Source: Cetorhinus maximus
Taxonomy: Eukaryota
Length of the DNA: 64,000 nt
Direction: 5' to 3'
Assembly (NCBI RefSeq): GCF_964194155.1
Contig: NC_135899.1
Coordinates: forward strand, 81,654,001-81,718,000
Numbering within the stretch: the stretch's first letter is position 1; the number at the start of each line of letters is the position of its first letter. Below the pieces are notes generated by a model. The model worked only from the letters and a program-made list of their open reading frames with translations. It ran no database searches and was not told the origin of the DNA. The position numbers and the translations under genes were made by a program. Positions 14,681-55,008 of this stretch are shown one piece after another.

Positions 14681-16269
14681 ATTGTCTCCTACTGGAAAGG
14701 GGTTGGTTGCCAGTAAACATAACTTTAGGGTCTCTGATTTAGGATCTAGAGCTGGGATTGAGTTGGACAATGATTCAAATCTCTTGAGAATTGTGAAAAA
14801 AATTAATTGGACCTGTTCATCTTAGAGGCAGTTTTATTAGGCCAGAAGCTGTGTAACAATTATTCAGGTAACAGAAAGAAAATAAATATTGCTCTAGGCC
14901 CAAATGAAGACAGGATATCGAGATCATTTGAGGATTAAAATTAATGGCCTTAAGACTCCCTCCTTCACATTAAAATTCACAAAATGTTTTCCAAATATTC
15001 AGCTTTTATTTTTCTAATAGATGCTGGCCTAGAAATTAGATCATATAACACATGTTTTTCAGGCACCAAATGGCCTCTTATTCCCCCAATATGGTAGACA
15101 GGAAATGCAGTCTCATTATCAGGTGAAAGTGCACAACCCGCCATATTGCTAAGAGCAAAAAAGATCGGCGTGCAATGCCCACACCTGAAATATAGGCCTT
15201 AGGCCTAGTGAGTGTGCAAAGAAAGGGTCTAGTGCCTGTCTGAGACACATCTGCTGCAAGCATGGTTGATAATCAACAACCCCTCACGTCTTCTGACTGG
15301 AGCAGGGACACTGAAATTGGTTGTAGCGCTCCACTAGCACCCAGATAAGAACACACCAGAGTAGAACATACTGGAGATGGAAGCAAAAGTCTTACCTATA
15401 TAGTATAGCTTGGATCTGCAACTCAGTTGGGTTATCTTGTAAAGACAATGTGGGAGTTTGTATAGTTTGTAGGATTGTTTCTTTCCCCTCGGGAGCTGGG
15501 CTGGTTACTATGTTGATTATAATGGCAGTTAAATTGCTGAGTATGTATTAAGCACAAGCAAAATGCTACAGTGTTTGTTTATCCATTTCTAATGCTTGAA
15601 TTGGAGCACTGTGTATCATTAAAGAATGTCATAAAGTTGATTTAATGAAAACAAAGAAGACTGAGAGAGAGAGAGAGAGACGATGGTTTATGGAGAATCT
15701 CTCAGTTGTGTTAGAACATTCCCATTTTTTGTGTTTTGGTATAAAAGGGGTACAGCAGTTCTCAAAAGCTCAATAATGTTTAGCAATGTTCATATTTTAG
15801 CTGCCTGTGAACTTCCTCCCTACATTCACTCAGAGAATACCATTAATCTAGACCTTTACATTGGTTAGTAACGTCAATAATGATGAGATATCACAATGAA
15901 TAACTAAGCAAGCTAAGGTTCTTAAGCCTCAAAAAAAGATCCTTCAGATGGAACCTTTTAGAGGTAAATCAGATATTTAATGCAATGAAGTACAGTTGGA
16001 GCAATTCTTTCAGATAAACCAAGACAGCAGGACAAAGAGAACAGGGTGAGGGTTGTGAAGAGAATGTTTAGGATCAATACCTGGAGCAGGTGACTTGGAA
16101 GGACAATTGAGACCAGAGCATGGAACTCACTTAAGGAACGTTGTAATGGAAAAGTGGGATGTTTGGCATTCTGGAAAGACGAGACTAAATGGTTGGACAT
16201 TTACATCCGACCCTGCGATACAGTCAATGAAAAAAATAGCAGGAACCCTCTCCACCCTCCCAAAAAGGA

Positions 16270-16642
16270 TATTTTTTTATAAATTCACTTATGGGATGTG
16301 GGCGTCACTGGCTAGGCCAGCATTTATTGTCCATCCCTAATTGCCCTTGGTCAGAGGGCATTTAAGAATCAACCACATTGCTGTGGGTCTGGAGTCACAT
16401 GCAGGCCAGACCAGGTAAGGACAGCAGATTTCCTTCCCTAAAGGACATTAGTGAACCAGATGGGTTTTTACAAAAATGAACAATGGTTTTATGGTCACCA
16501 TGAGGCTTTTAATTCCAGATTTTTATTGAATTCAAATTCCACCATCTGCCACGGCAGGATTTGAACCCAGGTCCCCAGAGCATTACCCTAGGTGTCTGGA
16601 TTACAAGTCCAGCAACAATACGACAACACCCATCACCTCCCC
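16270..16642 (-). mobile_element. HE1-like V-SINE, full length
   Basis: tRNA-derived head (ggggaggtgatgg...gggttcaaatcc), central domain aaacccatctggttcactaatgtcctttagggaaggaaatctg, HER1 tail. Confidence 0.9.
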
Positions 16643-16820
16643 AAACCATTTGACAGAAGGGCAACTCCCACCATCCTGCTTCCCCCTAAACTCCCTGCAA
16701 GTGTCTATGAAAATCAGGTAGCACGCAGTGCCAAATGCCACTCAACTTAAGACCCTTGCCAAGAAATTGCTTCAGTCTTGTCAGAGTAACAGCGTCCACT
16801 GCACAGTATAAGAACTTAAT

Positions 16821-17408
16821 GGGCTGAATTTTGCTGTTGGTGTGTGTCCCGACGTCATCCCGCGTCATTTCAATATTTCGTTTGTAGGGCGTGCGCTGGA
16901 GGCATCTGCACGCCCGCGGAACTGCCAACAGCCTATTAAGGCCATTTAAAAAGTAATCGAACTTGTTTAGAACGCTGTCCGTCCAGCCTTAAGGTTGTCG
17001 GGCAGGCGAGGAGCCCAAGCGGCCTTCGCGTTTTTCAGGAAACCTCATCCACGGGCGGGATGAGGTTTCCTGAAGCTTTTACAAAATAAATAAATAAATT
17101 TTCCTAACTTTACAAACATGTCCCAGCTCATGTGACACTCACATGAGGGGACATGTTTAAATAAATTTGTACTTTATTTATTAAAAAGTTTTCTAATCCA
17201 TTCAAACTCCTCGAGGCAGCTCTGTGCCTCAGGGAGATTGCTGCGCTCTTTCACGCGCATGCACGAAAGAGTGCAGGCCCCAACTCTCCCTCCTCCCCGA
17301 GCCGGCACAGGTATAAAATGGCGGTGCGCAGCCGATTGCGGGTGGCGATTGGCTCTGCGCCTGCACCCGCTCCCGCCCAGCCCACCCTCCATTGGAAAAA
17401 TTCTCCCC
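16821..17408 (-). mobile_element. Harbinger-derived MITE
   Basis: TIRs GGGCTGAATTTT / AAAATTCTCCCC; exact AAT duplication on both sides; two internal hairpins. Confidence 0.85.
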
Positions 17409-17559
17409 AATGTGAGTATACAAAAGTACTGTACAACCTCCAAGGTAGTAAGTGTTCAGCATCATGACATGAGCCTAAATACCCTGCAAATTTAAAGAAT
17501 AATTATTAAAAATTTGCCAAAAGGCCTCCCCACTCCTAAAAATCACAATGCCCATCATA

Positions 17560-17978
17560 AGACCATGGCAATTTTCTGCCTCAACTCCATTTTCCTGCCC
17601 AACCCCATCTCCTTGATTCCTTTGGAGATCAAAAAAATCTATCCATCCCAGCCTAGAATATACTCAACAATGGAATGTCCACATTCCAAAGATTCACAAA
17701 CATCTGAGTGAAGAAATTTCTCCTCATTGTAATCCTAATTGATCAATCCCTTATCTTGAGGCTGTGCCTCCATGTTTTTGATCCCCACCCAAGAGAAGCA
17801 ACCTCTCAGTGTCTACCCTGTCAAGCCCCTTCAGAATCTTGTGTGTTTCAATGAGATCACTTCTCTTTCTTCTAATCTCCAGAGAGTATTGGCCCAATTT
17901 ACTCAGCCTCTCATCATTGGACAATCCTCTCATCCCAGCAGCCAATCTAATGAACCTTCTCTGCACCCCCTCCAAGGC
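17560..17978 (-). mobile_element. CR1 LINE 3' fragment
   Basis: EGVQRRFIRL..GMRGLSNDERLSKLGQYSLEIRRKRSDLIETHKILKGLDRVD. Confidence 0.85.
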
Positions 17979-20124
17979 ACCTCTTTACACCTATCTTTAC
18001 ATCTATCATGAGGCATTTTACATAGATTGATTAATCTTGTAGTTAAATTTTAAATGCCACTAATGATTTTGCTGTAGCCTTTCATGTGGCATCCCCTCCC
18101 TTCTTAGTTATGGAAACCAGAACTAGTACAGTCTGATATTCGTGGCAACAATGGAGATGATATCATCTAATTGGCTAAAGAACGATGCAAGGATTGCTTG
18201 TTTACAGATCAGAAGAAGATTTCAGGAAATAACATCAGTGGCAATTTCAAAATACATGCCTGCTTTAAAAATTAAAATACACTTCAGCGCACAGGTCATA
18301 ATGAGGTGTCTCCAAAAGTGCAGGTGAATAAAAGCGTTTTGCCTGCTGTACATGCAAATGAGGTCTAAACCTAAATTAACATTTTGATAACAAACAAAAA
18401 AATTTTACGATAGGAGATTCCTCAGGTCATACACAAATACCAGACAAGGAGCTGTGCTCGGTCCCTCTCCTAATTATCTTTTCAAGAAGCTCTCATACCC
18501 AAAGGCTAAGGATCCCTTATGTTATTTCATTAACACACACAGTACTTAAGGACTAGATATAATGTGTGACTCTCTGGAGAGTTTCACACTCCAGAGGTAA
18601 TTAGGATTGAAAAGACAACATACTGCATAGTTTTTCCTGAGCATTTAAAAACTAATTGTACAGCCAATCCCTTTAAAATGCATCCAGCATGCTCAAAAGA
18701 GTACTCCACTTAGCAAGAATATAACTTAATGAGGAATTTGACTTAAATCTAAAATTAAAGATCCCACCAGGTACACATTTTATAATGGTATTCAATTTCC
18801 ACATTGTTATATTTTATTGGACTGCCTGCTTTAATAACAAGTCATTATTTCACCATTTCTTGTGTTCTTTGGAGAAGCAATTTTCAGACAGTGCGAATCC
18901 ATTTTCGAGACCTTCAGGTACAAAACGAAAATAATGCTTCAACATGAGAACGATGACTTCTGGATAAAATAGATGTACTTTTTTTTTGCTGATGGCTTTG
19001 AAAACCGGTGACAAAGATGAAACTGTGCATTGGGCCAGTGTTTGGTGGGTGAAGTGTGTGTGAGGCAGCTGGCAATGCAACAAACTTTTTAATAAAACAA
19101 CCGTAGATTGTTCACTATTTAACAGTGACAAATAACCTACACATACTTTACACCTATCGCGAGGCATTTTACAGGGGTTGATTGATCTTGCAGTTAAATT
19201 TTAAATGCCGCTAATGATTTTGCTGTAACCTTTCATGTGGCACATTGCATATTTTTCAAAGCACAAGAATAATTATTAAATGGAGCTCTCTTTCACAATG
19301 AAATGGATGGATGGCTGCTGATTATGTGTCTAATGATGGGATGCACATGCATATCAAAACACGTTAGCTGGAGTTGAATTGTCTGATTTAGGTGAACGCT
19401 AAATTGATGCTGATATTGCTCATACATTTTGTGTCATCATCGAGTTGCTACACCAACAAGATGTACGTATGAGGACATTTAAAAACGGACTTTTTGTTTT
19501 CAGGTATAGAATTCAATGCCCAAGAAAGAGCCATTCAGCCCACTTTGCTTGTTCTGGCTCTTTGAAAAAGCTATCCACTCCCCAGCTTGTGCCCAACCAA
19601 CAGCCCTGCAAGTTTTCTTTCCTTCAGCTATTTATCCAATTCTTTTTTGAAAGTCGCCATTGAATCTGCCTTCACCACCATTTCGCTGTGTAAAATTAAA
19701 GTCTCCTCATCTCACTTCTGATTCTTCCGATGTAATTAAAAAGAACGGAAAACTGTGAGCCACTGGAAGAGCCTCTTCATAGATAAGAGTTCAATATTTA
19801 CGTCATCATTGGCATCGGTCCTCAGAGGTTGCTATTCATCACTTATCATCGAGATCAACAAATGCAATTTCATCGAGCACGTGAGTTTTGACTTGTAACT
19901 TATCATTAGATGAGTAATCAACAGGCAATTCATCTGATGACACCTCAATTTCATAATTATTTTGCTCTTTTTAAATAAAGTATGTTTTACATATCTGTGA
20001 ACGAATGCAGCAAAATAATTACAATTTAATGCTACTTCTTGGTCCATATAAACTAATAATGATTACCCCATATGTTAATAAATATAGCTGCTATCCTGTC
20101 CTGCTATTATTACCTTCCAACTTA

Positions 20125-20530
20125 TTAGCCTTGGACTAGCAGTCTTCCCTCTGAATTAGAAGGTCAAGGGTTCAAGTCCCACTCCATAATCTAGGCTGAC
20201 GTTTCAGTGCAGTACTGAGGGAGAGCTGCATGTTTGAAAATGCCGGCTTTCAGATGAGAGGCCAAACTGAGAACCCATCTTCCCTTTCAGGGGAACATAA
20301 AACATTCTGTGACAGGACAGTTCTCCCTAGTGCCCTGGCCAATATTGATCCCTCAACCGAAAGATGACTTCGTCATTTATCCCATTACACATTGTGGGAG
20401 CTTGCTGTGTGCAAATTGACTGGTGAGCTTCCTACATTACCACAGTGACTACACCATAAAAGTACTTCATTGCTTGTGTAATGCTTTGGGACATCCTGAA
20501 TAGAGACACACTCTATAAATTCTTTATTTA
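20125..20530 (+). mobile_element. DeuSINE (SacSINE1-like)
   Basis: ctctgaattagaagg..gggttcaagtcccactcca head, agtactgagggag..ctgca core, gctttgggacatcctga...tataaat tail. Confidence 0.8.
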
Positions 20531-20589
20531 CCTCCACACACCACATAGGCTACAGCACCTCTGACACCATTATCTTCCCTCGTCCCTGT

Positions 20590-21228
20590 GGCCAGCATTT
20601 TGACGTTGGCGTGTGGGGGCGGGCCTGACATGCCAATGCATAAGATGACGCACGGTGATGTCAGGCGTGTGTCCCGGCATCACCGCGCGTCATTTAGATC
20701 TTTTGTTCAGCGGGCGGGCGCCAGAGGCAGCTGCACGCCCACCAAACCGCCAAAGGCCTATTAAGGCCATTAAAAAACCAATTAAAGCACTTATTAATGC
20801 TGCCCGTCCAACCTTAAGGGCGGGATGAGGTTTCCTGAAAGTTTTGTTAAATAAATAAATAATTTTTGCGCAATTCATAAACATGCCCCAGCTCATGTGA
20901 CACAGTCACATGAGGGGACATGTGTAATTCATTTTTATGTTTCTTTATTAAAAAAATCTCAATATGTACTTAATCTCCCTGAGGCTGCTCCGTGCCTCAG
21001 GGAGATTTTTGTGCTCGTTTGCACGCATGCGCGAAAGAGCACTGGCCCCGACTCTCCCTCCTCCCCCCGCCCGCACAGGTAGCGCTGAGCGCTACTGGCC
21101 GTGTGTCACGCTGGGTGGGACCTTAATTGTAAAATGTTGGCGTGGAGCCGATCGTGGACGGCGGTCTGCTCCGTGCCTGCCCACGCCCGCTCCTGACCGG
21201 CCCGCCCGGCAGGTAGAAAATTCTGCCC
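20590..21228 (-). mobile_element. Harbinger-derived MITE
   Basis: TIRs GGCCAGCATTTT / AAAATTCTGCCC; flanks TGT/TAT; colinear with 16821-17408. Confidence 0.85.
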
Positions 21229-22499
21229 TATAAAATTAGATCACCCCTCCAACCACGTACATTGTCCAGGTGGTGAAATCTCTTCCATCTCCTCTTGCCC
21301 AGCTTCCCAGTCCCTTCCATTTCCTTTGTCAAACATAAAATTTGAAAATTGTTAACACATTTACATTCCTTCTAAAAGCATACATCCCCATTAAAGAAAA
21401 GCCAAGGCACAAATAAATGTACGGATAGACTGGTAGAGCATAGAGACAGATTGCTCAGAAAGACAAGGGCATACATTCATCTAAACATCAGGTCAAAAAC
21501 AGATCACTACAAAATAGAGGACGGATAGATAAGAGAAAGAGAGATATAATTGAAAGAGACAGATCAATTCAAAAAAAGACTTCAATCACAGACGCAGGCC
21601 TGTATCAGATAGACAAAATGGCAACACATCATACACACACATCAATACAGAAAGCCACATCAGCAGCTCATACCTTCCAGACCAGTTCAAAGCTGAATAC
21701 CATAAGCAATGGGACATTTACTGATATATGTACATTTTTTTTGTATATGCACACAGTTCCTGCAACCGTCACACTCCTTTTACCACTTTGCTGTCAAGCC
21801 TATTTCCATCAGAACCTCCATGTTATGCCCAAAATATACCCCAGCATCTGATATCATTGTCTTTTGATTCAGCCCTCCCAACTCCAAGGAATTGGTCTCT
21901 ACCTGCAGCCCACTCAATCTCTTGTTTCCAGATCCTTCACTTGCACCTCCTCCTGCCACCCTAAGTGCCCACCAGACAATTTCTGCAGCCTGCATCTTGT
22001 CCTGGACTCTGATCTGCAGCCCTGCTCCCTAGAACCACGAAGGAATCCCTTCTGAGGTGTGAGGAACCTTTTTGGAACATAGCATCTCCGCATCAAAAGA
22101 AGTTGCATCCCAATAGTGACAACAAAACTGTTTTAAATTAGTTAAGAGCCATTAGGGCTTTTAAAAAGCACATAAAAGTTCTTAACCCATTTAAAGCCAG
22201 CTCCAAGTAATTGCCAGGGATACAGTTTGTTCTGCACGCATGATTTCCTAAGTTTTTCCATTCTGGCTGAGAATCCTTTATTATCTCAATAGCAGGCGGT
22301 GCTTAAACAATACCCTATTTCTTTTAAATACCGTAATACAGTTTACCGCTTCATGCCTTTCTTTGCTCAAACCCAACTTTTATGTCTTGGGTAAATGAGT
22401 TCGTTGGCTAACCAAACTCTAACTGCACGCCTTCCTATGTCCTCACCAATTGCTTCTTGCAATCAATAACAGGGAGAGACTGATGTGAGAATAAACAGT

Positions 22500-22635
22500 A
22501 CTGCCAGATCTGCTGAGTTTTTCCAGGTTATACTCAGTTCTGTTGAAGGGTCATGTGGACTCGAAACGTCGACTCTTTTCTTCTCCACCAATGCTGCCAG
22601 ACCTGCTGAGTTTTTCCAGGTAATTCTGTTTTTGC
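22500..22635 (+). mobile_element. 136-bp non-autonomous Penelope-end (retrozyme-like) insertion
   Basis: Exact 14-bp TSD TGAGAATAAACAGT (22486-22499, 22636-22649); internal direct repeat ctgccaga.ctgctgagtttttccaggt with 93-bp period; central hammerhead-like motif. Confidence 0.8.
22536..22574 (+). ncRNA. Minimal type I hammerhead ribozyme, core mutated
   Basis: AGTT-CTGTTGA-A-GGGTC-ATGTG-GACTC-GAAA-CG-TC-GACT; the core reads CUGUUGA instead of CUGANGA. Confidence 0.65.
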
Positions 22636-23369
22636 TGAGAATAAACAGTGATGGTTCATTGAGACATAGGCTAGAGCAACAGATCATACGTGCTCACTCA
22701 GGAACCTCCAGAACTAGACTTACAGTTCCCAGTTTCCCAGGCTGTACATTGATTTGTCAGTGCTGTCACATGATCAGTACCCTTGCATTCTCCTAAAGGG
22801 ACAGGGTACCTCACCTTACCACATCAATCTAAGCACCAATGCCTTCCTTTCCATCCCCACTTCCTCCTATCATCTCTTGCCACTTTTCTCCTCATATGTT
22901 TTTGAATATTTCCCCATATTGTTCCACTGCCTCTCACTGTTGCCCCTCCCCTTGCCCAGCATCTCTCCCTATTCCCCCTCCTTGCAGCCAACTCCTACTC
23001 TTCTCACCTTCCTCCCCCTTTTCCCCACTCTGCTCATTATGCTCAACCTCCACCCCAACACTCATGCCTTCTCCCGCACTTCCACCGTTTCTCCAGCCTC
23101 CATGTACCCCTGAATTTCCCCACATTCGCCCCTGTAAACCTGGCTCCAACAAAACCCCAACACGCTGTTTTTTTTTCAGAAGCAGCCCGCATTGCCTTTC
23201 AGTTTCCAGTGTCCCGACATTCAGCAACCCGTCCTATCCAACACTCTCACATCTCACACAACCCAGTGTTCTCGCTCCCCATTCTCCAGTGCTGCTGTAA
23301 CAGTTCTCACAACCTCTTGCTTCCTATATCTCTACCATCTTTCTTTGTGCTTTGGAATTTAATAATAAA

Positions 23370-23885
23370 AAATAAAGAGGAGCAGAAGGACCTGGGGTAT
23401 ATATGTACAAATCACTGAAGGTGGCAGGACCGGTTAATACAGCATCCTAGGCTTCATACATAGAGGCCTAGAGTACAAAAGCAAGGAAGTGAACCTTTTC
23501 AAAGGACTGGTTTGGCCTCAACTGGAGTTTATGTCCAGTTCTGAATATCAAACTTTAGGGAGGATGTGAAGGCATTAGAGAGGGTGCAGGAAAGATTCAT
23601 GGGAGTGCTTCTGTGTGTGAGGGACTTCAATTATGAGGATGGATTGGAGATGCTAGGGTTGAGAGGAGATTTCATAGAAGTGTTCAAAATCACGAGGAGC
23701 CTGGACAGGGTAGAAAGGCAGAAACTATTCCTGTGGGTGGAAGGATTGAGAACTAGAGGACTCCGATTTAAGGTGATTCGAAGAACAGCCAGAGGCAACG
23801 GGAGGAAAAAAAAAACTTTTACACTGCAAGTAATTAGGATCTGGAATGCACTGGTGAAAGAGGCAGATTGAATCATGGCTTTCAG
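23370..23885 (+). mobile_element. CR1 LINE 3' fragment
   Basis: KALERVQERF...LRGDFIEVFKI..LDRV...TRG..FKV. Confidence 0.85.
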
Positions 23886-24319
23886 TTGTTGCAGAGAGAC
23901 CAGCTTCCTTACATCAGACCTGAATTTACCTTTTATTAGTTTGAACTATATCCTACTAATGCAATTTACTTAGAAGTAATTTTCTGGATTTACTTTCTCC
24001 ACGTTTTTAATGACTTATTTACATCTATAAGGTTATCTCTTAGTCATCTCCTTTCAAAGCTTAACAATCCAAGTTACACGTGCACACACACACATTTTGG
24101 GACATTACAATCTTTGGGGAAGACTTGCTTGTGCACATTGACCTTCCTGAATACAATTTTTAGAGTATTTTTCCTTCATAAAAGCAACATTTGTTTTCAT
24201 TTACTCTTCTTCAGTTCTCTTTTCTTTATTCTATCTTTGTTTCTTTCCCTCCGTTCTTTTTAGATTCAGGGCCTCTTTTATTTGTGTTGATAGCCAGGCA
24301 GAAAAAAAGACAAAAGAGG

Positions 24320-24600
24320 GAGAAACATAGGAATGGGGTGGAGGCGGGCAGGGAAGGCCATTCAGCCTCTCGAGCCTGTTCTGTCTTTCATTCAGATCGT
24401 GGTTGATTTATACCCCAACTCCGTTTGTCTGTCTTTGGTCCATATGCTTGGGTGCCCTCATCTAGCCAAACTCTATCAAGTTCAGTGCCGAAATTTCAGT
24501 TGAAGCAGCATCCAATACCTTTTCTTGAGGAGAGAGTTCCAGATTTTCGCTACCCTTAGTGTGAACAAACGCTCCCTGCTTTCATCCCTGAACGGCCCAC
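24320..24600 (-). mobile_element. CR1 3' UTR remnant
   Basis: gaaacatagga...ggccattcagcctctcgagcctgttc...gagagttccagatt, typical of a reverse-oriented CR1 tail. Confidence 0.6.
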
Positions 24601-27411
24601 CGTGAGGTTTAAGAGGAAGGCAGGGAAGGGCTCATCAGCTAGAAAGATAACACAGGTAACGCAAGCTGTGAGGAAAGGGTTAAACTGCCGTTGCAGGGAA
24701 AGCAGCCGTAAGGTGAGGAATCCCCATCCCCTTTCATGCAGATTTGGTTGGAAGACCAGTAGACGGGATGAAAATAAATAAACAGCAGGTCAGCAGCGTA
24801 CCTTAAAGGGGAAGACTGGTTTATGTTTCTTTTGGGATCTTCATCAAAGCTGCTTCAGGTCTGGTGAAGGGGACCCAATCGCAGCGTTAACCTATCTTTC
24901 TCTTTCAATGCTGACTTGTTTGTAAATAACTCAATGGGAGATTTTTATTTTCCGCTTTGCCAAAAGAAGCATTGATCTCAGGAAGGGAATAGCTATAAAT
25001 CATTGGAAAGATGCTCTGGGGATAAGGGAGAGAGAAAAAAAGTAGGAGAGACTGAAACTCCATTAAAATTGGCAGTGAATCTTAATTTCAGATCTTTGTG
25101 GCAGTTGGCTTTAGTTCCATGCTGCCAGCCATACTTACCAAAGACATTTCTAGGAAGATATTTCCCTGATAAATATCAATTAGATATTAATGGAGTTGTG
25201 GATGAATGCTCCTCTATTTCTGAACAGGTGATGTAATTTTAATATTATGATCATAGGTCAAAAAATGTTTGGAAATGGAGTTTTAAAAGCAATATAAAAG
25301 AACTAAAGGATAGCAGAACAGCACTGAAAGCTGATTCTGCTGTTGCCAACATAGTACGAGACCATTATTGCAATGGTGATTGCTAGTATGTTCCCTGCTA
25401 CACAATAAAAATTAAATCTGCTCGACTTGATCCGCAGCCATCAATTTTATTTAAAGTCCTTCCTTCCCTGAAGGTGGCAAATTGTGCTGGATTACTTACC
25501 CATTGGCACCTCATCCAAGTGTGAAACCAGACACTCAAACGTGGACAGGCTGTTCAAGGCTGAGAGGAGGGAGGTCCTTGTTGACTGGTCATGTGTGCCT
25601 TAGGATTTGTGCTGACTGGTTAATAGAGTGGGGATGGGAACCAATGGAGGCTCAAAAATGAAAGAATTTATTTATAAAGAGCGTTCTCAAAGGGATGCAA
25701 TTCACACCATGAAGTACATTTTGGAGAGCAGTGACTATTATGCAGGCGAACATAAGGTGGAGTATGGCAATCCATGACTAGCCCAGTGGAGATCAGCTGA
25801 CTCCAAGATAGAACTTGGAAGCTTCCTGGTCTATATGGCTGAGTACCACACCATGCTGAGCTGCTGGCTAGGAAGCCATCAGGAAATAATTACTTCTCCA
25901 TAGTTTCCTTTTGCTTCAGATAATTGAGTTGGCACTACTTCTGCTACTGCTGATCAAGTGTTCAGCTCTATGGGGTCTGCATTGACATCTGCAAGTACCT
26001 TGTGCCTGCGATCGTTTAATGAAGCCCTCCTAATTTTTGCCTATTATCATTAGCGATGTTATAGTGAGGTTATAATCAGTAGTGCAAGCTTAGTTGTAAT
26101 TATGACATTCACTATGATCCCATAAGACCAGACTTCTGTATGGGTGGAAACGCCCGTGTTGAAAAATAATGTATATTGTTACAACCAAGGGTCTGCGTCC
26201 CATTGAAATCGATCAGAAATAGAGCCGTGCGGTTTTATAAAAGCCCCATTCACATTCCTGGGGTGTTCCACTCAGCAGGAAACATTGTTAGCAAATCTAA
26301 AATAATCTAACTGCAAAATGTTTCATTTTCTTCCTCCAGTGACTGTTGCTAACAAACTCCTTGTGTTAGTTTCCTGTTTTAAACACCCTATTACTAGTGC
26401 AGCGATAAATCATTTTAAAACTTGACATGCTCATACTGGGCCCAGGCATCAAGCTATCTATAATGGCTCTTGACAAATCCATTCTACAATTCAAACTGAT
26501 ATGGTTGATATTGATGTCACACTAAAAACCATAGACAAATTAAGTCCTAATGCAACAGAACGTTGCATGCATTGAGCAGCAAGGCTTTTGTTGTGTGACA
26601 TCCACAAGTGGCAAGTGTAGCATTTGCACTCTGGTGTCCCCGGCAATCATTTATAACTGTCAGTAGCTGCGGGAAATGTGACAAATACTGATTACAGCAG
26701 TACAGAATATCCATTAGGGATGGAAGATGTAAAATATGCCTGCATATAAAATCTCAACAACATGAAATGTAAAAGAAATCACGCATTTTGCGGGCCTGAA
26801 CAATTACTCTCGCGCTCTTCCTAAATTTTCAAAATAAACACAGGCGCCTCCTACACAGGGTTAGATTGATTCTTAGCTCACAATTTCCTGCTTTTGATCG
26901 CTCTTTCAGAGAGATGACCTAATGGGACAAACTGTCATCCAGTGCAGCGAGTGCTGACTCAGTCAAAGCATTCAGAAAGACATTGGGGCTGTTTCCTAAT
27001 GCACCAGGGAACAAATGGATATGGGTTTGGCAAGTGAAGCAAGAAGGAAATTAAATGCTTTGTTGGGGTCCAGAGCCTGTATATGAATGATGGGACAAGC
27101 AGGTTAAACCGAATGCCCTGTTCTCATTTCTAATTTTTTACGGTCCGTCCTGATGCATTCATATTTCTGGACTGCAATACAACCTGTTGTAGGAGTTGCT
27201 GCCTTGTGCACTGCTGAATTTCTTCTTATAATGTGGTACAGGGTGGTTACCAGAATTGTGCCAAGGTTTAATTGTGAAGGCTTGAAAAAAAATGATGGCG
27301 TGTTCTACATCGCAGATCATGTAGCCTGTTGTTACTGAATGATTTATCATATGCGCTTTAATGGTCAGAAACATTTGGATATTTTACTTCCTAATTGTCT
27401 TTTCCATTCAG

Positions 27412-29383
27412 GTAAAAGGAAAATACTGCGGATGCTGGAAATCTGAAACAAAAACAGGAAATGCTGGAAAAGCTCAGCAGGTCCAGCGACATCTGTGGAG
27501 AGAGAAACGGAGTTCACATTTGGAGTCCGGCGGTTAACTCTGTTTCTCTGAGTCCGGCGGTTAACTCTGTTTCTCTGCGTCCGACGGTTAACTCTGTATC
27601 TCTGAGTCCGGCGGTTAACTCTGTATCTCTGAGTCCGGCGGTTAACCCTGTTTCTCTGAGTCCGGCGGTTAACTCTGTATCTCTGAGTCCGGCGGTTAAC
27701 CCTGTTTCTCTGAGTCCGGTGGTTAACCCTGTTTCTCTGAGTCCGACGGGTAACTCTGTTTCTCTGAGTCCGGCGGTTAACTCTGTTTCTCTGAGTCCGA
27801 CGGTTAACTCTGTTTCTCTGAGTCCGACAGTTAACTCTGTTTCTCTGAGTCCGACGGTTAACTCTGTTTCCCTGAGTCCGACGGTTAATTCTGTTTCTCT
27901 GAGTCCGACGGTTAACTCTGTTTCTCTGCGTCCGACGGTTAACTCTGTTTCTCTGAGTCCGGCGGTTAACTCTGTTTCTCTGAGTCTGGCGGTTAACTCT
28001 GTTTCTCTGAGTCCGGCGGTTAACCCTGTTTCTCTGAGTCCGGCGGTTAACTCTGTATCTCTGAGTCCGGCGGTTAACCCTGTTTCTCTGAGTCCGGTGG
28101 TTAACCCTGTTTCTCTGAGTCCGGTGGTTAACCCTGTTTCTCTGAGTCCGACGGGTAACTCTGTTTCTCTGAGTCCGGCGGTTAACTCTGTTTCTCTGAG
28201 TCCGGTGGTTAACCCTGTTTCTCTGAGTCCGGTGGTTAACCCTGTTTCTCTGAGTCCGGTGGTTAACCCTGTTTCTCTGAGTCCGACGGGTAACTCTGTT
28301 TCTCTGAGTCCGGCGGTTAACTCTGTTTCTCTGAGTCCGACGGTTAACTCTGTTTCTCTGAGTCCGGTGGTTAACCCTGTTTCTCTGAGTCCGGTGGTTA
28401 ACCCTGTTTCTCTGAGTCCGGTGGTTAACCCTGTTTCTTTGAGTCCGACGGGTAACTCTGTTTCTCTGAGTCCGGCGGTTAACTCTGTTTCTCTGAGTCC
28501 GACGGTTAACTCTGTTTCCCTGAGTCCGACGGTTAATTCTGTTTCTCTGAGTCCGACGGTTAACTCTGTTTCTCTGAGTCCGGCGGTTAACTCTGTTTCT
28601 CTGAGTCTGGCGGTTAACTCTGTTTCTCTGAGTCCGGTGGTTAACTCTGTTTCTCTGAGTCCGGCGGTTAACCCTGTTTCTCTGAGTCCGGCGGTTAACT
28701 CTGTTTCTCTGAGTCCGGTGGTTAACTCTGTTTCTCTGAGTCCGACAGTTAACTCTGTTTCTCTGAGTCCGACGGTTAATTCTGTTTCTCTGAGTCCGAC
28801 GGTTAACTCTGTTTCTCTGCGTCCGACGGTTAACTCTGTTTCTCTGAGTCCGGCGGTTAACTCTGTTTCTCTGAGTCTGGCGGTTAACTCTGTTTCTCTG
28901 AGTCCGGCGGTTAACTCTGTTTCTCTGAGTCCGGCGGTTAACCCTGTTTCTCTGAGTCCGGCGGTTAACTCTGTTTCTCTGAGTCCGGTGGTTAACTCTG
29001 TTTCTCTGAGTCCGACAGTTAACTCTGTTTCTCTGAGTCCGACGGTTAATTCTGTTTCTCTGAGTCCGACGGTTAACTCTGTTTCTCTGCGTCCGACGGT
29101 TAACTCTGTTTCTCTGAGTCCGGCGGTTAACTCTGTTTCTCTGAGTCCGGCGGTTAACTCTGTTTCTCTGAGTCCGGCGGTTAACTCTGTTTCTCTGAGT
29201 CCGGCGGTTAACTCTGTTTCTCTGAGTCCGGCGGTTAAATCTGTTTCTCTGAGTCCGGCGGTTAACTCTGTTTCTCTGAGTCCGGCGGTTAACTCTGTTT
29301 CTCTGAGTCCGGCGGTTAACTCTGTTTCTCTCTCCACAGACGCTGCTGGGCCTGCTGAGCTTTTCCAGCATTTTCTGTTTTTG
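27412..29383. mobile_element. Fold-back insertion of two inverted Penelope 3' ends enclosing a minisatellite
   Basis: Left arm 27412-27529 matches 53438-53560; right arm ~29315-29383 is its reverse complement; flanks TGTCTTTTCCATTCAG (27396-27411) and TGTCTACTCCATTCAG (29384-29399) match 14/16. Confidence 0.8.
27523..29331. repeat. 27-bp minisatellite, 67 units, consensus GAGTCCGRCGGTTAACTCTGTTTCTCT
   Basis: Directly visible; 1809 bp = 67 x 27, so phase is kept end to end. Confidence 0.97.
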
Positions 29384-29579
29384 TGTCTACTCCATTCAGC
29401 CATCTCTATCCCCTATCCGTGTAGCTCTTTATTCCCTTTTCACTCCTTCTGGTTCAGTCTTCTGTATCAGGTATTACATAAATTGGATGTTGCTCCAGAT
29501 CTGAGGTTACCAAGTTGAAACAACATGTAGCTTATGTATTGAGGCAGCAAACCTGCAAGATGGCATGTGATCACAGTGG

Positions 29580-33384: not shown

Positions 33385-35419
33385 CCTGTGGCATTAAGAC
33401 GCCACAGCTGGGCACTGTACAGTCATTGCAGCCTCATCAGGTGCCACGGTCACTGGCAGAGGGGCGGAGGAGCTGCTGCCACCATCCAGATCGCCCTGAG
33501 AGGAGCCCCCAGAGACAACAAGCAGCTTGTGTACCAACATGAGGTTGGTCTGGACCTCCCTGCTCGCGACTGATGGATGGGCATCTAGCAGAGATACTGG
33601 GTGCCACATTCATCTCTCACACTAGCAGAGACCTCCTGAGGTCATTACCTGTGTGAGGGCTTACAGGTTCGAGCGCAACCCCAGGAACCCCGATTCTATT
33701 CCTGGAGTTACCTGTCACTCTCTCAATGGAAGAGACTGTGCATTTGGTGCTGAGGGTCAATGCAGTGCACATGCTCCGAATGGACTCCTCCATAACAGAG
33801 GCCATGGCATGCATACCCTCATGGATCTCCGCCAGATCCTCCTGCACATCCCGCTGGACATTCAGCATCTAATGGACAATTCAGAGACTCATTGCCTGCC
33901 TCAGACTCAGCATGGTCCTGGTCTCCAGCAGTCCTCCGACTGCCAGCACCCTAGGCACTCTTTGCCTCCGTCTGCTCCTCATGCGAGTGTGTCATGCTCT
34001 CCCCACTGTGCACTGACATTGTAACTGATGACCTAATGCCCACCAAAGTGCTGGTCTCTGCGCTGGTGCCTGGTGCAGAGAGGGGGTGTGATGCAGGTGC
34101 ATCTGACGGGCACTAGTCCACCGGCATCAAGGGTGGCTCATCGGGGTCTTGAAATTGTTTGCTGGATGACAATTCTAGGGGAGAAAAACGACATGTCATT
34201 AGTATTAGTCATCACACTGTCACTGTGCATGCTAGGCGGGCTGGTGAGACAATGGAGGCCTGCATCATGCAGCCATCGTCTTTCAATGAACAATGGGGAC
34301 TCCAGGTTTGAAGTTTCCATAACAGATGACACAATGCAACAACATTGACGCACTCTGACACTCACATCTGTGCACTGCACTCTTACCTTCCTCAGAGACC
34401 CCTGTCTCTCCATGACCACTGGAACGAGCTGGGCGCGGGCACTCCATCGCTAAGGCATCCGTCTCGTTCCTCGTCAATATGAGCAGGTTTGGGGGGCCTC
34501 CCCCTGTCCGGGATCTCTCAATGTTGTTATGGCTTCTCTGCTCCTGAAAGGGCAGAGGAGCATTGAGTAGTCCACTCTCTACCTGCAGCGCCATTGCAGC
34601 CTGGCCAACCCCAGCAGAGGAGCACCTTGCAGGGCACATCCGAGTTGTGGCCGTTGACCCGCAAAACATTCAGGCCATGCAGCCAGAGCTCACCACCTTG
34701 GCCGCCGCCGATATCATTGACAGTTGGCACTCAGACTCTTACACCCCTGAGCACTATGGGGGAGGGGGTGTGGCCAGCTGTTAACACTTCTCCAACAGAT
34801 CCATGCCAACTTGGTACTCAGCCTTGCCGAGCGCAGCAGATCGTTGAACCTTTTGCGCCGCTGCATCCATGTGCGCTGCACAACATCATGGTCGCTGACC
34901 TGAGCTGCCACCTCTGCCCATGGTCATTTCTTGGTCAGGTGCAGTGGCCTCCTCTTGCCATCCATGAGGATGAGGAAGTCCTGCCTGGCACTGACCTCCT
35001 CCACGAGGATTCCCAGGCACTCATCCGAGTACCAGGGGGCGGGGGGCAGGGCCGAGTGCCCACAGACTTTCTCTCTTGCCTGGTAGTGCCCAGCAGGTGC
35101 AGATGACATTGCAGCTGAAAAAAAGGAGTTGTGTCAATCAACTCCAAAGCTACAAAGTGTCAGCCTGGCAGCCTCCAGGAAGCTTCCTCTGCTGCTCTTA
35201 AACCCCACACTGGGTCGCCATTGGACCCGGCCCCCGACAGGCTCCCAGCCCCCGCCCGGCCCTTCCAACCATTGAGAAGACGCATTTCACGCTGGGCAGT
35301 CTTAATTGGCCACCCAGCGTGAAATCGTGTTGGAAACGCAATCTCGCCCGGGAGCGGATTATACATCCGTTTCTGGGCCCACCAGCTTCGCGCGCACGCC
35401 AAGCACGAAATTCAGGCCC
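33385..35419 (-). mobile_element. Truncated Harbinger copy: one TIR plus Myb/SANT partner gene, no transposase
   Basis: Terminus GGGCCTGAATTTC (minus strand, 35419); subterminal GC-rich region like the MITEs; coding homology to 46932-48249. Confidence 0.8.
33394..35109 (-). pseudogene. Harbinger Myb/SANT-like DNA-binding protein, 3 exons (35109-~34822, 34543-34387, 34174-~33394), disrupted
   Basis: APWYSDECLGILVEEVSARQDFL...RRPLHLTKK*PWAEVAAQVS....VQRTWMQRRKRFNDLLRSAR is Myb/SANT-like; 157-nt exon 2 (ERSRTGGGPP) has tttcag/gtaaga sites; in-frame stop, damaged first donor and frameshifts in exon 3. Confidence 0.8.
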
Positions 35420-46931: not shown

Positions 46932-48249
46932 GAGAAGAATGCACAAAATGCCGCCGAGCGGGTGAGGACTGGCAGCGGCCAGACGCAGTCAGCAATTCTC
47001 AGCCGGTTTGAGCAGGAGGCCCTGGATTTGGAGAGGCGCCATGCGCCCAGGTCCACCGGTGTTGGTGAGGCTGGGGTGCCACGGGCAGGTATGTATGTCC
47101 AGCAGTGAGGTCACCATTGTTCTCCCAACAGCCATGGCAATGCTGAATGTTCAGTGATTTAATTTTGCAACATGACTTGACCATTGCTTATGAAAGGATG
47201 AGCGCATAATGATCCGGGGGACAGGGGTGCACATTGATATTGTCTCTACATTAACTGATCCAATGTCCTTGTTCTTCCTTTCAGCATCACCGGAGCAGGG
47301 CCGGGAGGAGGAGCAGCAGGGACCCCCTCTAACAACTGAGGGCCCTGAAGTCTCACCAGTGTCACACCATCTCTGCCAGGCAGGCACCAGTGCAGATACT
47401 GGCCCCTCGGTGAGAATTAGAACATCGGCTAGTGCCCCGGGGTACAGCGGTGAGGGCACTTCACAGTCGCTGGAGGAGCTGGCAGAGACAGAGAGTGCCC
47501 ATGGCTCCAGCAGTCGAAGGACCGCGGGGGACCAGGCACATGCTCAGTCGGTGCCTGATGATGTGTCTGTGGAGTCATCCATGATGCAGCAAACACAGGA
47601 AATGTGGCCGGGTGTGTGGGAGCATCTGGGGGAGATACATGAGGCTAGGCTTGGCTTAGTGTCCGTAGTGGAGGAGTCCACGTGGACTATTGCTGAAGCA
47701 ATGAGCCTCATGGCCGAGTGCCATGCGTCCTCCATGGAGAGAGTGGCGACCCTCATGGAGAGGCTCCTTCAGGAGAACAATCAGGGTTTCCTGGGGATGT
47801 GCTCTGACCAGCAAGCCCTCACATTGGCATTGTCCTCAGCTGGTCAGTGCCAGTGTGGGAGATGGTGTGGGTACCAAGTTTCCCAGCTCGGTGCCCATCC
47901 ATCCACAGTGAGCAAAGAGGTCCGAAGCAACATCACGTGGGCGCAGCAGCTGCCTGTCGTCTCTGCGGGCTCCTCTCAGGGCGCTCTGGATGAGGGCGGC
48001 TGCTCCTCCCCCACTCTGCCAGTGACCGCAGCATCTGGTGAGGCTGCGGTGACTGGGGAGATGCCAGCCGTGGCACTGGCCACTCCCTCCCAGGTGGGGC
48101 CAGAACCAGCTCCACAGGCCAGAGGACGACTGCCAAGGTCATCGAGGCCAACAGGACAGCAGAGTCAGCAGGCTGGCTCAGATGCCACTCCCAGCGATGG
48201 GGCAGCATCAAGACATAGCACCCGAAAATGTAAACATAAGGCACCTTAG
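46932..48249 (+). pseudogene. Harbinger partner (Myb/SANT-family) gene, exon 2 (46932-47088) and exon 3 (47285-48249) open; DNA-binding exon missing
   Basis: tttcag|GAG acceptor, CAG|gtatgt donor and tttcag|CA acceptor are phase-compatible; exon 2 is 157 nt as in the 34.5-kb copy; homologous peptides (SSMERV, VVSAGSSQGALDEG); basic C-terminus TRKCKHK. Confidence 0.8.
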
Positions 48250-48574: not shown

Positions 48575-49735
48575 CTAGCTGAAGGTTCGTTGGATTAAAG
48601 CCTCCCGGGTGTCCCTGCCTCCCTGGAGTATGCCCGGGTCAGCGTCTACCCCCTCAGCATTTCCCTGTGCGTGTTCATCCTCAGACTCACTGCTGGACTC
48701 ATCGTGTGCAGCCGCAGACACTGTGTCAACATCTTCATCGTCCACTGCGTCCCCCCTTTCCAGCACAAGATTGTGGAGAGCGCAGCATGCTACCACTATC
48801 ACCAAGACACGATCTCGGGGGTACTGGAGTGCGCCCCCTGAACGCTCCAGGCATCGGAAGTGCATTTTGAGAAGACCGATGGCTCTCTCCACCACAACCC
48901 TTGTGGTGCCGTGGCTCCTATTGTAGTGCTGCTCAGCTTCTGTTCTTGGATGGCGGAGAGGCGTCATGAGCCACCTTCTGAGGGGATAGCCCTCATCACC
49001 CAGCAGCCATCCATCCAGCTGGGCTGGAGCACTGAAGAGCCCCGGCACCTGGGAGTGTCTGAGGATGTAGGCATCGGTGGAGCTGCCTGGGTACCTTGCA
49101 CAGACTTGTAGAATCAGCATCCTATGGTCACACACTATCTGCACGTTCATGGAGTGGAAGCCCTTCCTGTTGACGAAGGCACCGGGCTCACCTGCTGGCG
49201 CCTTGATGGCCACATGTGTACAGTCTATTGCACCCTGGACATGGGGGAAGCCAGCAATGGCCGCGAAGCCTCTGGCTCGCTGAGTCTGGCTTGTCTGGCC
49301 CCAACGGTGGTGGATGAAGGTCAATGCATGCCTGAACAGAGCGTCTGTTACCTGCTTGACACAAGTGTGGACAGCTGATTGGGAGACACCGCAAAGATCA
49401 CCCACCGAGCCCTGGAAGGAGCCAGAGGCATAGAAGTTGAGGACAGCTGTGACCTTCAGAACCACTTGCATGGCGTGTCCACCCACACAGTTAGTGGAGA
49501 TCTCAGGCCCAATCATCTGACAGATATAGTTGTCTGTCTCCCTTGAGAGATGGAGCCTTCTTCGGCACTGCACCTCAGACATATTGAGGTAGCTGCTTCG
49601 CCGCCTGTATACCCTGGCAGCAGGATAGTGGCACCTTCTGCAGCCCCTTCCACCTTGGACAACCTCTTGGCCCTGCGCCCCTTGTGCCTGCGCCTGTCCT
49701 CCCAAAGGTGGCTCCCCTGGAGGCTGAATGTGCAT
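48575..49735 (-). CDS. Harbinger DDE transposase (HARBI1-like, DDE_Tnp_4), 386-aa open frame
   Basis: LNFYASGSFQ..GDLCGVSQS, FPHVQGAIDCTHV, NRKGFHSMNVQIVCD, YPGSSTDAYI, LLGDEGYP, RVVVERAIGLLK..FRCL, ACCALHN. The original start may be ~49809 (MGVELS) with a frameshift near 49740. Confidence 0.93.
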   Translation of the reverse strand: MHIQPPGEPPLGGQAQAQGAQGQEVVQGGRGCRRCHYPAARVYRRRSSYLNMSEVQCRRRLHLSRETDNYICQMIGPEISTNCVGGHAMQVVLKVTAVLNFYASGSFQGSVGDLCGVSQSAVHTCVKQVTDALFRHALTFIHHRWGQTSQTQRARGFAAIAGFPHVQGAIDCTHVAIKAPAGEPGAFVNRKGFHSMNVQIVCDHRMLILQVCARYPGSSTDAYILRHSQVPGLFSAPAQLDGWLLGDEGYPLRRWLMTPLRHPRTEAEQHYNRSHGTTRVVVERAIGLLKMHFRCLERSGGALQYPRDRVLVIVVACCALHNLVLERGDAVDDEDVDTVSAAAHDESSSESEDEHAQGNAEGVDADPGILQGGRDTREALIQRTFS

Positions 49736-50801
49736 TCCGGCCTCCTCCCCCTTCTAGCTCTCCTTTCTCCCTCAGAAGAGGTGCCTCCAGTGGAGAGTTC
49801 AACTCCCATTCCCAGGCTAAGGGAAGGCTTCCTGAAACCTGCAGGCCCAAAAAAGATTCCTCACTGCAGAGTGCTGACCTGAAGATTAAGAGTCCAGACA
49901 AAGCAGCTGTTATGTGTTTTGAAGTATTGCAGATCACACAGGCAAGTTTCAATAACTTAATCAACACTTAAGAGAGCACACTCGCGACCCCAGTGAGCCC
50001 TCTTATCCCGCCCGTGGATGAGGTTTGTGCAAATGTGTCCTACCCGCCTGCCCGTTGCACCTGTGCGCCGACCCGAAGGTTGCACGGGTGCTGAAAAATT
50101 GGTGTCAATTGGTGAGTCAAGGGCCTTAAGTGGCCCGTTAATTAATGGCAGGTGTGCAGTGGATATCATCGTGTGCCCGCCCAATGAAATATTGCGATGG
50201 CACGCGGTGACGTGGGGAACTCGCCCAACGTCACTGCACGTCATTTTACGTGCAGACGTGTGGGACCAGCCCCCGCATGCCAATGGGAAAATTCTGCCCA
50301 TAGTGTTTAGATGTTTGGGGTGAATGCGTGAGTAAATAATCCTCTTTATTTAAACCCGCAAAAGCTTGCTGCTGCTTTTAAATTGGCCGCACCCAGTCTG
50401 GGGGCTAAGAAACACACACATCTTCCAAAATCTTTCAAAAAATGCATTGATTACAGGCGGTAAGGGAAAGGGCACAAGGTTTTCAGTCATCTCCCGACCC
50501 TCTTTGCAGCAATACATATTTTTAAGTACCTGCATGTTGGCAATCATTCCTATCATCTTTGTCATCCTGCCTGCCATTCTGCACCTTAGTTTGTCTCGAA
50601 ATTTAATGGAGACATGAAAAATTATGAATTTGCACCTCTGTGTCATGCCAATAGTTAGATTTTAAAACAAAAGATACTGTCACTTCACGAAGTTTAACAT
50701 GTAAGACGAGAATGGTCAGTCAGGCTGTAAAAAATGAACCGAAATCAAAAAGTGCTGGAAAAACTCAGCAGGTCTGACAGCATCTGTGGAGAGAGAGACA
50801 G

Positions 50802-50840
50802 AGATAACGTTTCGAGTCCGTATGACCCTTCTTCAGATCT
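50802..50840 (-). ncRNA. Minimal type I hammerhead ribozyme
   Basis: AGAT-CTGAAGA-A-GGGTC-ATACG-GACTC-GAAA-CG-TT-ATCT on the minus strand. Confidence 0.8.
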
Positions 50841-50907
50841 GGTGAGTCAAGGGCCTTAAGTGGCCCGTTAATTAATGGCAGGCGCGCAGCGGATATCATC
50901 GACCAAC

Positions 50908-50944
50908 GATCTGAAGAAGAGTCATACGGACTAGAAACGTTATC
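50908..50944 (+). ncRNA. Minimal type I hammerhead ribozyme
   Basis: GAT-CTGAAGA-A-GAGTC-ATACG-GACTA-GAAA-CG-TT-ATC; the closing pair of stem II is mismatched. Confidence 0.75.
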
Positions 50945-51129
50945 TCTGTCTTTCTCTCCACAGATGCTGTCAGACCTGCTGAGCTTTTCCAGCATTTTTT
51001 GTTTTCGTTTCAGATTTCCAGTAGCCGCAGTATTTTGCCTTTGTTATGTCAAAAAAATGAATGGTGCACCACCGTGCATTTGGATATTGATGTACGTTAC
51101 CTTGATGAAATGTTTGAAGTATTAACATG

Positions 51130-53198: not shown

Positions 53199-53437
53199 GC
53201 TGGGAGCAAGTTGTCTGAGCAGAATAATTGAAGTCACAACTCATGTCTTCCCTGTAGACTTCAGCACCTCAACTATCAGTATAAACCTCCAAAACACTTC
53301 CAACAACTTAGCAACAGTCAGTCAAAATCAATCAGCAACTAACCAGAATATATAGTCGCCATTAATGAAAGAAAATACCTTAGTTAAAAATGTGACTGGA
53401 GACTCGCACAAAGTATTTGCCAGGATTGATTTTTGCT

Positions 53438-55008
53438 AAAAGCAAAAAACTGCTGATGCTGGAAATCCAAAACAAAAACAGAAACAGAAATGCCTGGAAA
53501 AACTCAGCAGGTCTGACAGCATCTGTGGAGAGGAAGACAAGAGTTAATGTTTCGAGTCCGTATGACTCTTCATCAGAACTAAAGAGGAATAGAAATGCGG
53601 TGAAATATAAGCTGTTTAAGGGGGGGTGGGACAGGTGGAGCTGGATAGAGGGCCAGTGATAGGTGGAGGCAAAGGAGAGATTGCCAAGGATGTCATAAAC
53701 AAAAGGTCAAAGGGGTGTTGAGGGTCATGATATTAGCTAAAGGATGTGCTAATGGTGACATTAAGGGTAGAAAGCAAGATGGGCAAGTGACAGATGGCCC
53801 TAGTGGGGGGAAGGGATTGAAATAGGCTAAAAGATGGAGATAAAACAATGGATAGAAATAAATTTTAAAAATAATAATAGAAATAGGTGGGGAAAAAAAA
53901 AATATATATATATATAAAAATATATAATAATTATTGGGGAAAAGGGGGTCAAAAAGGAGGTGGGGATGGTGGAGAGAGTTCATGATCTAAAATTGTTGAA
54001 CTCAATGTTGAGTCCGGAAGGCTGTAAAGTGCCTAGCCGGAAGATGAGGTGCTGTTCCTCCAGTTTGCGTTGAGCTTCACTGGAACATTGCAGCAGGCCA
54101 AGGACAGACATGTGGGCATGAGAGCAGGGTGGTGTGTTGAAATGGCAAGCGACAGGGAGGTCTGGGTAATACTTGCGGACAGACCGAAGGTGTTCTGCAA
54201 AGCGGTCACCCAGTCTGCGTTTAATCTCTCCAATGTAGAGGAAACCGCATTGGGAGCAACGAATGCAGTAGACTAAGTTGAGGGAAGTGCAAGTGAAATG
54301 CTGCTTCACTTGAAAGGAGTGTTTGGGCCCTTGGACGATGAGGAGAGGGGAAGTAAAGGGGCAGGTGTTGCACCTTCTGCGGTTGCATGGGAAGGTGCCG
54401 TGGGAGGGGGTTGAGGTGTAGGGGGTGATGGAGGAGTGGACCAGGGTGTCTCGGAGGGAACGATCCCTGCGGAATGCCGCCGGGGGGGTGAAGGGAAGAT
54501 GTGTTTGGTGGTGGCATCATGCTGGAGTTGGCGGAAATGGCGGAGGATGATCCTTTGAAAGCAGAGGCTGGTGGGGTGATAAGTGAGGACAAAGGGATAT
54601 CATGGTTCTGAGAGGGAGAGGAAGGTGTGGGGGCGGATGCACAGGAGATGGGCCGGACACGGTTGAGGGCCCTGTCAACCACCGTGAATGGAAAACCTTG
54701 GTTAAGGAAGAAGGAAGACATGTCAGAAGAACTGTTTTGGAAAGCAGCATCATCAGAACAGATGCAACGGAGGCGAAGGAATTGAGGGAATGGGATGGAG
54801 TCCTTATAGGAAGCGGGGTGTGAGGAGCTGTAGTCGAGGTAGCTGTGGGAGTCAGTGGGCTTGTAATGATTATTGGTGGATAGTCTATCACCAGAAATTG
54901 AGACAGAGAGGTCAAGGAAGGGAAGGGAAGTGTCAGTGATGGACCATGTGAAAATGATGGAAGGGTGGAAATTGGAAGCAAAGTTAATACATTTTTCCAG
55001 GTCCAGCA
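53438..55008 (-). mobile_element. Penelope-like element, 5'-truncated: RT C-terminus + GIY-YIG endonuclease + 3' end with hammerhead
   Basis: FASNFHPSIIFTWS....LPFLDLSV...YKPTDSHSYLDYSSSHP..KDSIPF.QFLRLR.ICS; FTCTSLNLVYCIRCSQCGFLYIGEIKRRLGDRFAEHL...VACHFN...RKLEEQHLIFRLGTLQPSGLN. Confidence 0.93.
53542..53580 (-). ncRNA. Minimal type I hammerhead ribozyme in the Penelope 3' end
   Basis: AGTT-CTGATGA-A-GAGTC-ATACG-GACTC-GAAA-CA-TT-AACT; perfect core and 5-bp stem II; the stem III CG has decayed to CA. Confidence 0.8.

Follow-up and report, generated by a model that had tools for sequence, protein, structure and literature searches.

A 27-bp minisatellite across the seam of an inverted Penelope-type insertion

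Between positions 27412 and 29383 of the window, by which we mean the whole stretch of 64,000 nucleotides that was analysed, a minisatellite lies between two inverted copies of the terminal repeat of a Penelope-type element (PLE; Table 1). As the initial annotation had stated, the array counts 67 units: TRF returned a period of 27, 67.0 copies, 94% matches, 0% indels and a score of 3086 over 27523-29331, the exact count being that of the assembly alone. The arms that enclose it (27445-27517 and 29315-29387) are 89% complementary over 73 nt, and the 8 of 71 aligned sites that differ correspond to a divergence of 5.6% per arm (95% interval 2.5-10.5%). The 16-bp target-site duplication proposed earlier was borne out as well: among the 16-mer pairs that lie within about 40 nt of the two ends it ranks first, and its 14/16 identities were reached by 0 of up to 200,000 random pairs of 16-mers from the window, drawn so as not to overlap the insertion. 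The left arm extends outward by an additional stretch of about 37 nt, a 'tail' that the right arm lacks, and contigs of the PLE family break off at this end (27413-27420) in all four short-read runs compared below. Toward the array, the left arm is truncated 15 nt upstream of the predicted cleavage site of the hammerhead ribozyme, while the right arm, which is the sense strand, runs from 3 nt upstream of this site to the proximal end. Inverted and 5'-truncated terminal repeats (pLTR), a target-site duplication and a tail of 30-40 bp at one end only, which form the architecture described for PLE insertions by Arkhipova et al. (2013, PMC3846280), Craig et al. (2021, PMC8557442) and Frangieh et al. 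(2024, PMC11167929), are all present at 27412-29383; palindromes at the seam of inverted pLTRs are described in the first two of these works. The target site itself (27383-27412) resembles a 3' splice site exactly at the insertion point, with a branch-point-like CTAAT, a pyrimidine run and CAG; no exon was found beside it.

Table 1. Coordinates of the array, of the insertion that contains it and of related PLE copies in the window.
Feature	Position	Strand	Remark
Left target-site duplication, 16 bp	27396..27411	+	14/16 identical to right copy
One-sided PLE 'tail', about 37 nt, distal end of the element, left arm only	27412..27448	-	
Left arm, PLE terminal repeat, hammerhead-sense on minus strand	27412..27529	-	truncated inside hammerhead loop II
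Minisatellite, 67 x 27 bp	27523..29331	+	15 unit types, 12 variant alleles
Youngest large internal duplication	28639..29147	+	239-nt exact repeat (28639-28877, 28909-29147), lag 10 units
Homogeneous array end, consensus type in 7/8 last units	29116..29331	+	P about 0.001, label shuffling, either end
Right arm, PLE terminal repeat, hammerhead-sense on plus strand, without tail	29315..29383	+	63/71 identical to left arm in pairwise alignment
Right target-site duplication	29384..29399	+	14/16 identical to left copy
Paralogous inverted PLE insertion, both hammerheads nearly whole, no array	50735..51045	.	comparison locus
5'-truncated PLE copy with GIY-YIG endonuclease end, hammerhead at 53580	53436..54960	-	5' limit read by eye

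Four further copies of the arm sequence occur in the window, with matches of 76-85%, and the left arm is 79-84% identical to the copies at 50735-50820, 50927-51042 and 53437-53560. A descriptor of the minimal type I hammerhead found exactly these four copies (22536 and 50907 on the plus strand, 50840 and 53580 on the minus strand), compared with 0.03 matches per shuffled window, and stem I covaries between copies by a compensatory change; Rfam gave no match in the window at its gathering score. These hammerheads fit the minimal type that Cervera and de la Pena (2014, PMC4209133) describe for PLEs. A minimal type I hammerhead in the terminal repeat is a mark of PLEs, and the arms are truncated members of that repeat. 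The endonuclease end of the family is seen in a paralogous copy, in whose frame P0001 (53983-54516) a CX4CxxC motif precedes the GIY-YIG motif, as read from the translation. Pfam scored this GIY-YIG at E=0.013, below the cut-off, the top Atlas matches reached 0.96-0.97 with GIY-YIG on 13-56% of members, and a PDB sequence search with the frame gave nothing significant. A CX2-5CxxC motif upstream of a C-terminal GIY-YIG, the combination found in this copy, is assigned to the Neptune and Nematis clades (PMC8557442), which would tie the terminal repeat to a Neptune/Nematis-type PLE. We found no copy in the window that reaches the RT core. The terminal repeat is very abundant, with 16,200-25,890 contigs matched per run and nearly all depth on the arm; a repeat family of this kind would point to a shark or ray. 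Strand switches within the repeat make up 7 of the 15 joints listed, out of 20 in all, and are consistent with other inverted insertions in these genomes. At 22501-22634, a related PLE terminal repeat stands in partial direct tandem; it contains the whole minimal hammerhead at 22536 and has an apparent short flanking direct repeat. Elsewhere, the window holds a 392-aa open frame with a DDE_Tnp_4 (Harbinger-type) nuclease domain (48578-49753, minus strand, E=5e-38), a 351-aa frame on the opposite strand to it without a Pfam match (47194-48249), a LINE-type reverse transcriptase fragment (61435-62034, plus strand, RVT_1 E=3e-19) and a 291-nt inverted pair, 76% complementary and 14 kb apart (33401-33691 and 47784-48074), each member of which is probably a copy of the DNA transposon located near 47-50 kb.

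Purified PLE protein has been reported to cut both strands of its target and to extend them from two RT start sites, which lie one tail length apart, without a requirement for ribozyme cleavage (PMC11167929). The arms at 27412-29383 fit such a two-start model, one arm starting from the distal and the other from the proximal site, and two target-primed events at two nicks may explain them as well as a fold-back does; self-priming at a palindrome is an alternative origin of the inverted arms. Of the 'Penelope fold-back' in the initial annotation the inverted PLE arms are therefore retained, whereas the fold-back becomes one of two mechanisms that fit equally. The ends of the arms do not follow the cleavage site, with which the annotation had proposed to compare the unit breakpoints. 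Upstream of this site, 35, 34, 15 and 3 nt are retained in the four arms of the two insertions, and truncation at the ribozyme cleavage site is thus rejected as a rule. The second of these insertions (50735-51045) has a target-site duplication of 10/10 at 50729 and 51052, and its seam holds a 68-nt filler (50840-50907). A stretch of 62 nt in this filler matches 50110-50171, 730 nt upstream on the same strand, at 59/62, its only close match in the window. The filler has the appearance of DNA copied from a neighbouring template while the ends were being joined.

The 27-bp unit is composed of 7 nt of antisense hammerhead stem II/loop, a 3-nt spacer and 17 nt of sense sequence. Its description as a chimera of both arms was confirmed for the antisense GAGTCCG, through which the left arm aligns unbroken to the antisense copies at 50814-50820 and 53554-53560, and needed correction for the sense part, which begins 3 nt before the predicted cleavage site and not at it. 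The spacer is mostly GCG and, in about a third of the units, ACG. On sequence grounds, ACG can be read as sense from loop II, which would imply a short seam palindrome and then a 10-nt deletion, or, as an equal alternative, as sense from just before the cleavage site plus one extra G. Since the first unit of the array runs on from the left arm and the last unit into the right arm, the unit could not exist before the junction of the inverted insertion. No exact short direct repeat or microhomology flanks the unit, and the phase is not continued by bases 27522 and 29332, so that a simple slippage seed leaves no direct footprint. Made of head-to-tail units of TE sequence within the 10-100 bp range, the array is a TE-derived minisatellite. 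The long ORFs across it (700, 673 and 632 aa) arise because the unit equals 9 codons, and the 700-aa frame gave only a sub-threshold Pfam match. No host gene was found: of 92 ORFs of 70-149 aa that start at 15-45 kb, 75 were searched and gave one sub-threshold DUF match; short exons would escape such a search. We consider it likely that the array is a neutral single-locus minisatellite without a ribozyme core or a visible gene, this being the best explanation of the locus as a whole.

Alternatively, a dispersed satellite or retrozyme-like 27-mer of independent origin could have landed between the arms. Tandem retrozymes derived from PLEs are described in vertebrates, one chondrichthyan among them (10.64898/2026.07.22.740005), and, like these non-LTR retrozymes, the array is a tandem repeat that goes back to the hammerhead part of a terminal repeat of PLEs. 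However, its 27-bp unit is of mixed orientation, falls short of the 51-972 bp range given in that work and cannot self-cleave as a hammerhead. Indeed, the earlier statement that the catalytic cores are gone proved correct, with no CTGANGA on either strand of 27412-29383. Because no unit contains the core, and a complete hammerhead in at least two consecutive units is not found, the array is not a retrozyme as defined there. The continuity of the first and last units with the arms likewise argues against an independent origin, and neither junction motif of the unit recurs elsewhere in the 64-kb window. In X16, a run of the window's species, the summed depth of 27544-27576 was 681.8 compared with 13.1 on the flank; summed depth is no copy number, and the ratio of about 52x is only roughly near the 67 units of one locus. 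An independent satellite thus appears scarcely credible. Exact-pattern scans gave 0 hits for the unit-unit junction in metagenome contigs and 0, 0 and 0 for the family core in metagenome, prokaryote-genome and viral contigs; this animal is not expected in these collections, and the zeros are hence no evidence.

The 12 variant alleles from which the 15 unit types are built comprise 10 that are common to several units and 2 that are private. An 8-unit block of unit types occurs twice, compared with at most 6 units in 2000 shuffles, and the 239-nt repeat in Table 1 is the longest exact repeat in the array. Three allele pairs failed the four-gamete test; two of these involve one unit, and one could be a recurrent CpG change. 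When independent decay of 67 units was simulated at 2.4% per unit, about the minimum age as set by the relative A (n=2000), we obtained on average 33.6 alleles (minimum 18) and 25.5 singletons (minimum 13), compared with the 12 and 2 observed. Alleles and singletons are thus too few, and shared variants recur in duplicated blocks, from which we infer that the present array was made by DNA-level duplication and turnover. Local duplication of units, as expected of a minisatellite, is seen in the shared variants and block repeats, whereas units made from one template in one event and then subject to independent mutation only are not what we found.

This pattern bears directly on a telomerase-like iteration, in which the PLE RT, by repeated template jumping, would have produced the bulk of the 67 units at a single stroke. 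PLE RTs are sister to TERT (PMC8557442), and a bacterial RT, DRT2, makes tandem cDNA from a short template (PMC12039810). However, the variants are incompatible with 67 independently ageing units, the sense/antisense unit is absent from the element's own RNA, and organism A has the insertion, yet no amplified array was seen in its half-read run. In addition, our literature search, at the level of titles and abstracts, found no PLE RT acting in this way at internal sites. We consider an origin of most units by such iteration very improbable. The initial annotation had let the junction seed the repeat either by RT template jumping or by slippage and unequal exchange; the latter fits, while the former finds no support in view of the shared block variants and of organism A. 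By the variant pattern alone, an earlier RT-made array may have been overwritten by later turnover, which would also erase its signature; the relatives below bear on this.

The contigs of 4 of 24 short-read runs were compared over 26500-27576, the runs X2 and X8 being about half read. Organism D, the window's species, shares 0.75-0.79 of words with the window and organism A 0.19-0.20, where words outside the array would by themselves give 0.18-0.27; this test is weak, since a single fixed change in each unit would suffice to remove all 31-mers. In X16, contigs show tandem joints from 27576 to 27523 (back 54) and from 27573 to 27523 with CCT, the CCT joint corresponding to variant unit type I. 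As X16 is possibly the assembly's own sample, it is not independent and supports the tandem structure, not the count of 67. At the flank sites 27293 and 27340 X16 differs from the window (T>C), with the C at 27340 common to organism A, which suggests another haplotype. In organism A (X2), one contig spans 26503-27428, from which it differs by 42 substitutions and 3 gaps (4.5%), and stops 17 nt inside the left arm. This contig enters the arm, whereas an empty site would continue into the right flank, and the insertion is thus common to organism A. Only 1 contig fits two places in X2 compared with 10 in X16, and the sole overrun in X2 is the flank contig; no amplified array was seen in the half of X2 that was read, where a homogeneous array could be missed. 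In organism B (X8, about half read), 8 contigs fit two places and one overruns an end, at the low depth of 43.3; a short array is thus possible in organism B and would put the seed further back in time. The flank contig of organism C (X15) could be followed to 27177 (record position 1628 of 2217), short of the insertion site. Taken together, the array probably expanded mostly after the window's species split from relative A.

The first copies could already stem from the integration itself. An RT or repair polymerase that re-used the nascent junction would have made 2-3 copies, and DNA turnover the rest. The unit spans the seam exactly and lacks flanking microhomology, the templated filler at the other seam indicates that template switching happens at such seams, and it has been suggested that retrotransposition can trigger the repetition of TE parts (PMC3389668). 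The summed depth of 27544-27576 in X2, 74.8 compared with 39.3 on the flank, is no copy number; its 1.9-fold excess would fit two units, but is equally explained by paralogous contigs. We regard seeding at integration as conceivable, if on the doubtful side. It would refine the step of a single duplication and is compatible with later turnover at the DNA level, and an RT or repair origin is possible for the first 1-3 copies only.

Expansion could also have been driven by structure, if slipped-strand hairpins between units or a cruciform of the arms destabilised the site. Neighbouring units pair on the plus strand (z = -3.9 and -5.3 relative to dinucleotide shuffles), and the arms plus one unit form a long hairpin (z = -2.1). 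However, when shuffled units are arranged in tandem as a control, 5.6% of 1000 fold equally well, and so do 5.4% of 312 27-mers of the family treated in the same way, which makes the effect borderline; on the minus strand nothing stands out (z = -1.2; 31% of shuffles). A structural drive thus seems unlikely to us.

In human, 7,276 of 31,472 mini/satellites (23%) are TE-derived (Ahmed and Liang 2012, PMC3389668), and such minisatellites are described as common and as expanding by local duplication (PMC3389668; review PMC9659126). Like these, the array is a probably single-locus array of TE sequence with locally duplicated units, and like most of them it lacks a flanking direct repeat, but its unit is a sense/antisense chimera from one insertion and not a contiguous piece of a TE. 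As the insertion created this chimeric unit, the birth of the minisatellite is tied to one event. With the inverted PLE insertions of the three works cited above, the locus shares head-to-head terminal repeats, a target-site duplication, a tail at one end and a short palindrome-like seam, whereas both copies are cut to about 70-120 bp and the seam is amplified into a 1.8-kb minisatellite. It also resembles the tandem TE dimers proposed as satellite seeds by McGurk and Barbash (2018, PMC5932611), in that a TE-TE junction made by transposition feeds later expansion; there, however, a whole TE stands in direct tandem, and here 27 bp across an inverted seam. Our search of a mostly open-access literature turned up no paper on a minisatellite of this kind, at the inverted junction of a PLE. 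The array is a TE-derived minisatellite inside an ordinary truncated inverted PLE insertion, and its special point is the chimeric, datable unit.

In summary, we favour, as likely, an origin by PLE insertion, one 27-bp duplication at the seam and then slippage or unequal exchange at the DNA level. According to the anatomy of the locus and to mechanisms taken from the literature, a Neptune/Nematis-type PLE would have cut its target with a 16-nt stagger and made two short cDNA copies of the element end, one from a distal start, with the tail, and one from a proximal start, which would have been joined head-to-head at their truncated 5' ends. A single duplication of the 27-bp stretch across the seam may then have produced a dimer. 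As the variant pattern shows, growth and turnover then took place at the DNA level by slippage, unequal exchange and unit-to-unit conversion, in copying steps that took in several units and as many as about 10 at once. The mechanism of expansion is ordinary, while the birth of this minisatellite is unusually clear and datable.

Are inverted seams of PLEs a recurrent nursery of minisatellites? Template switching could leave a chimera of 2-3 units at the seam, and the cruciform of the arms could aid its expansion; we consider this generalisation a long shot. The first duplication of minisatellites is largely unexplained, and known models cover 6% of TE-derived arrays according to PMC3389668. Here, the unit cannot predate one insertion, and its age is bracketed by the arms, the target-site duplication and the relatives, so that the assembly of a single relative could reveal the state before expansion. 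Taken by itself, the locus serves as a teaching example and might be of use as a VNTR marker. It would gain weight only if PLE seams prove enriched for arrays genome-wide. If the nursery reading were true, many such arrays would be possible given the abundance of the terminal repeat, each dated by its own arms and target-site duplication.
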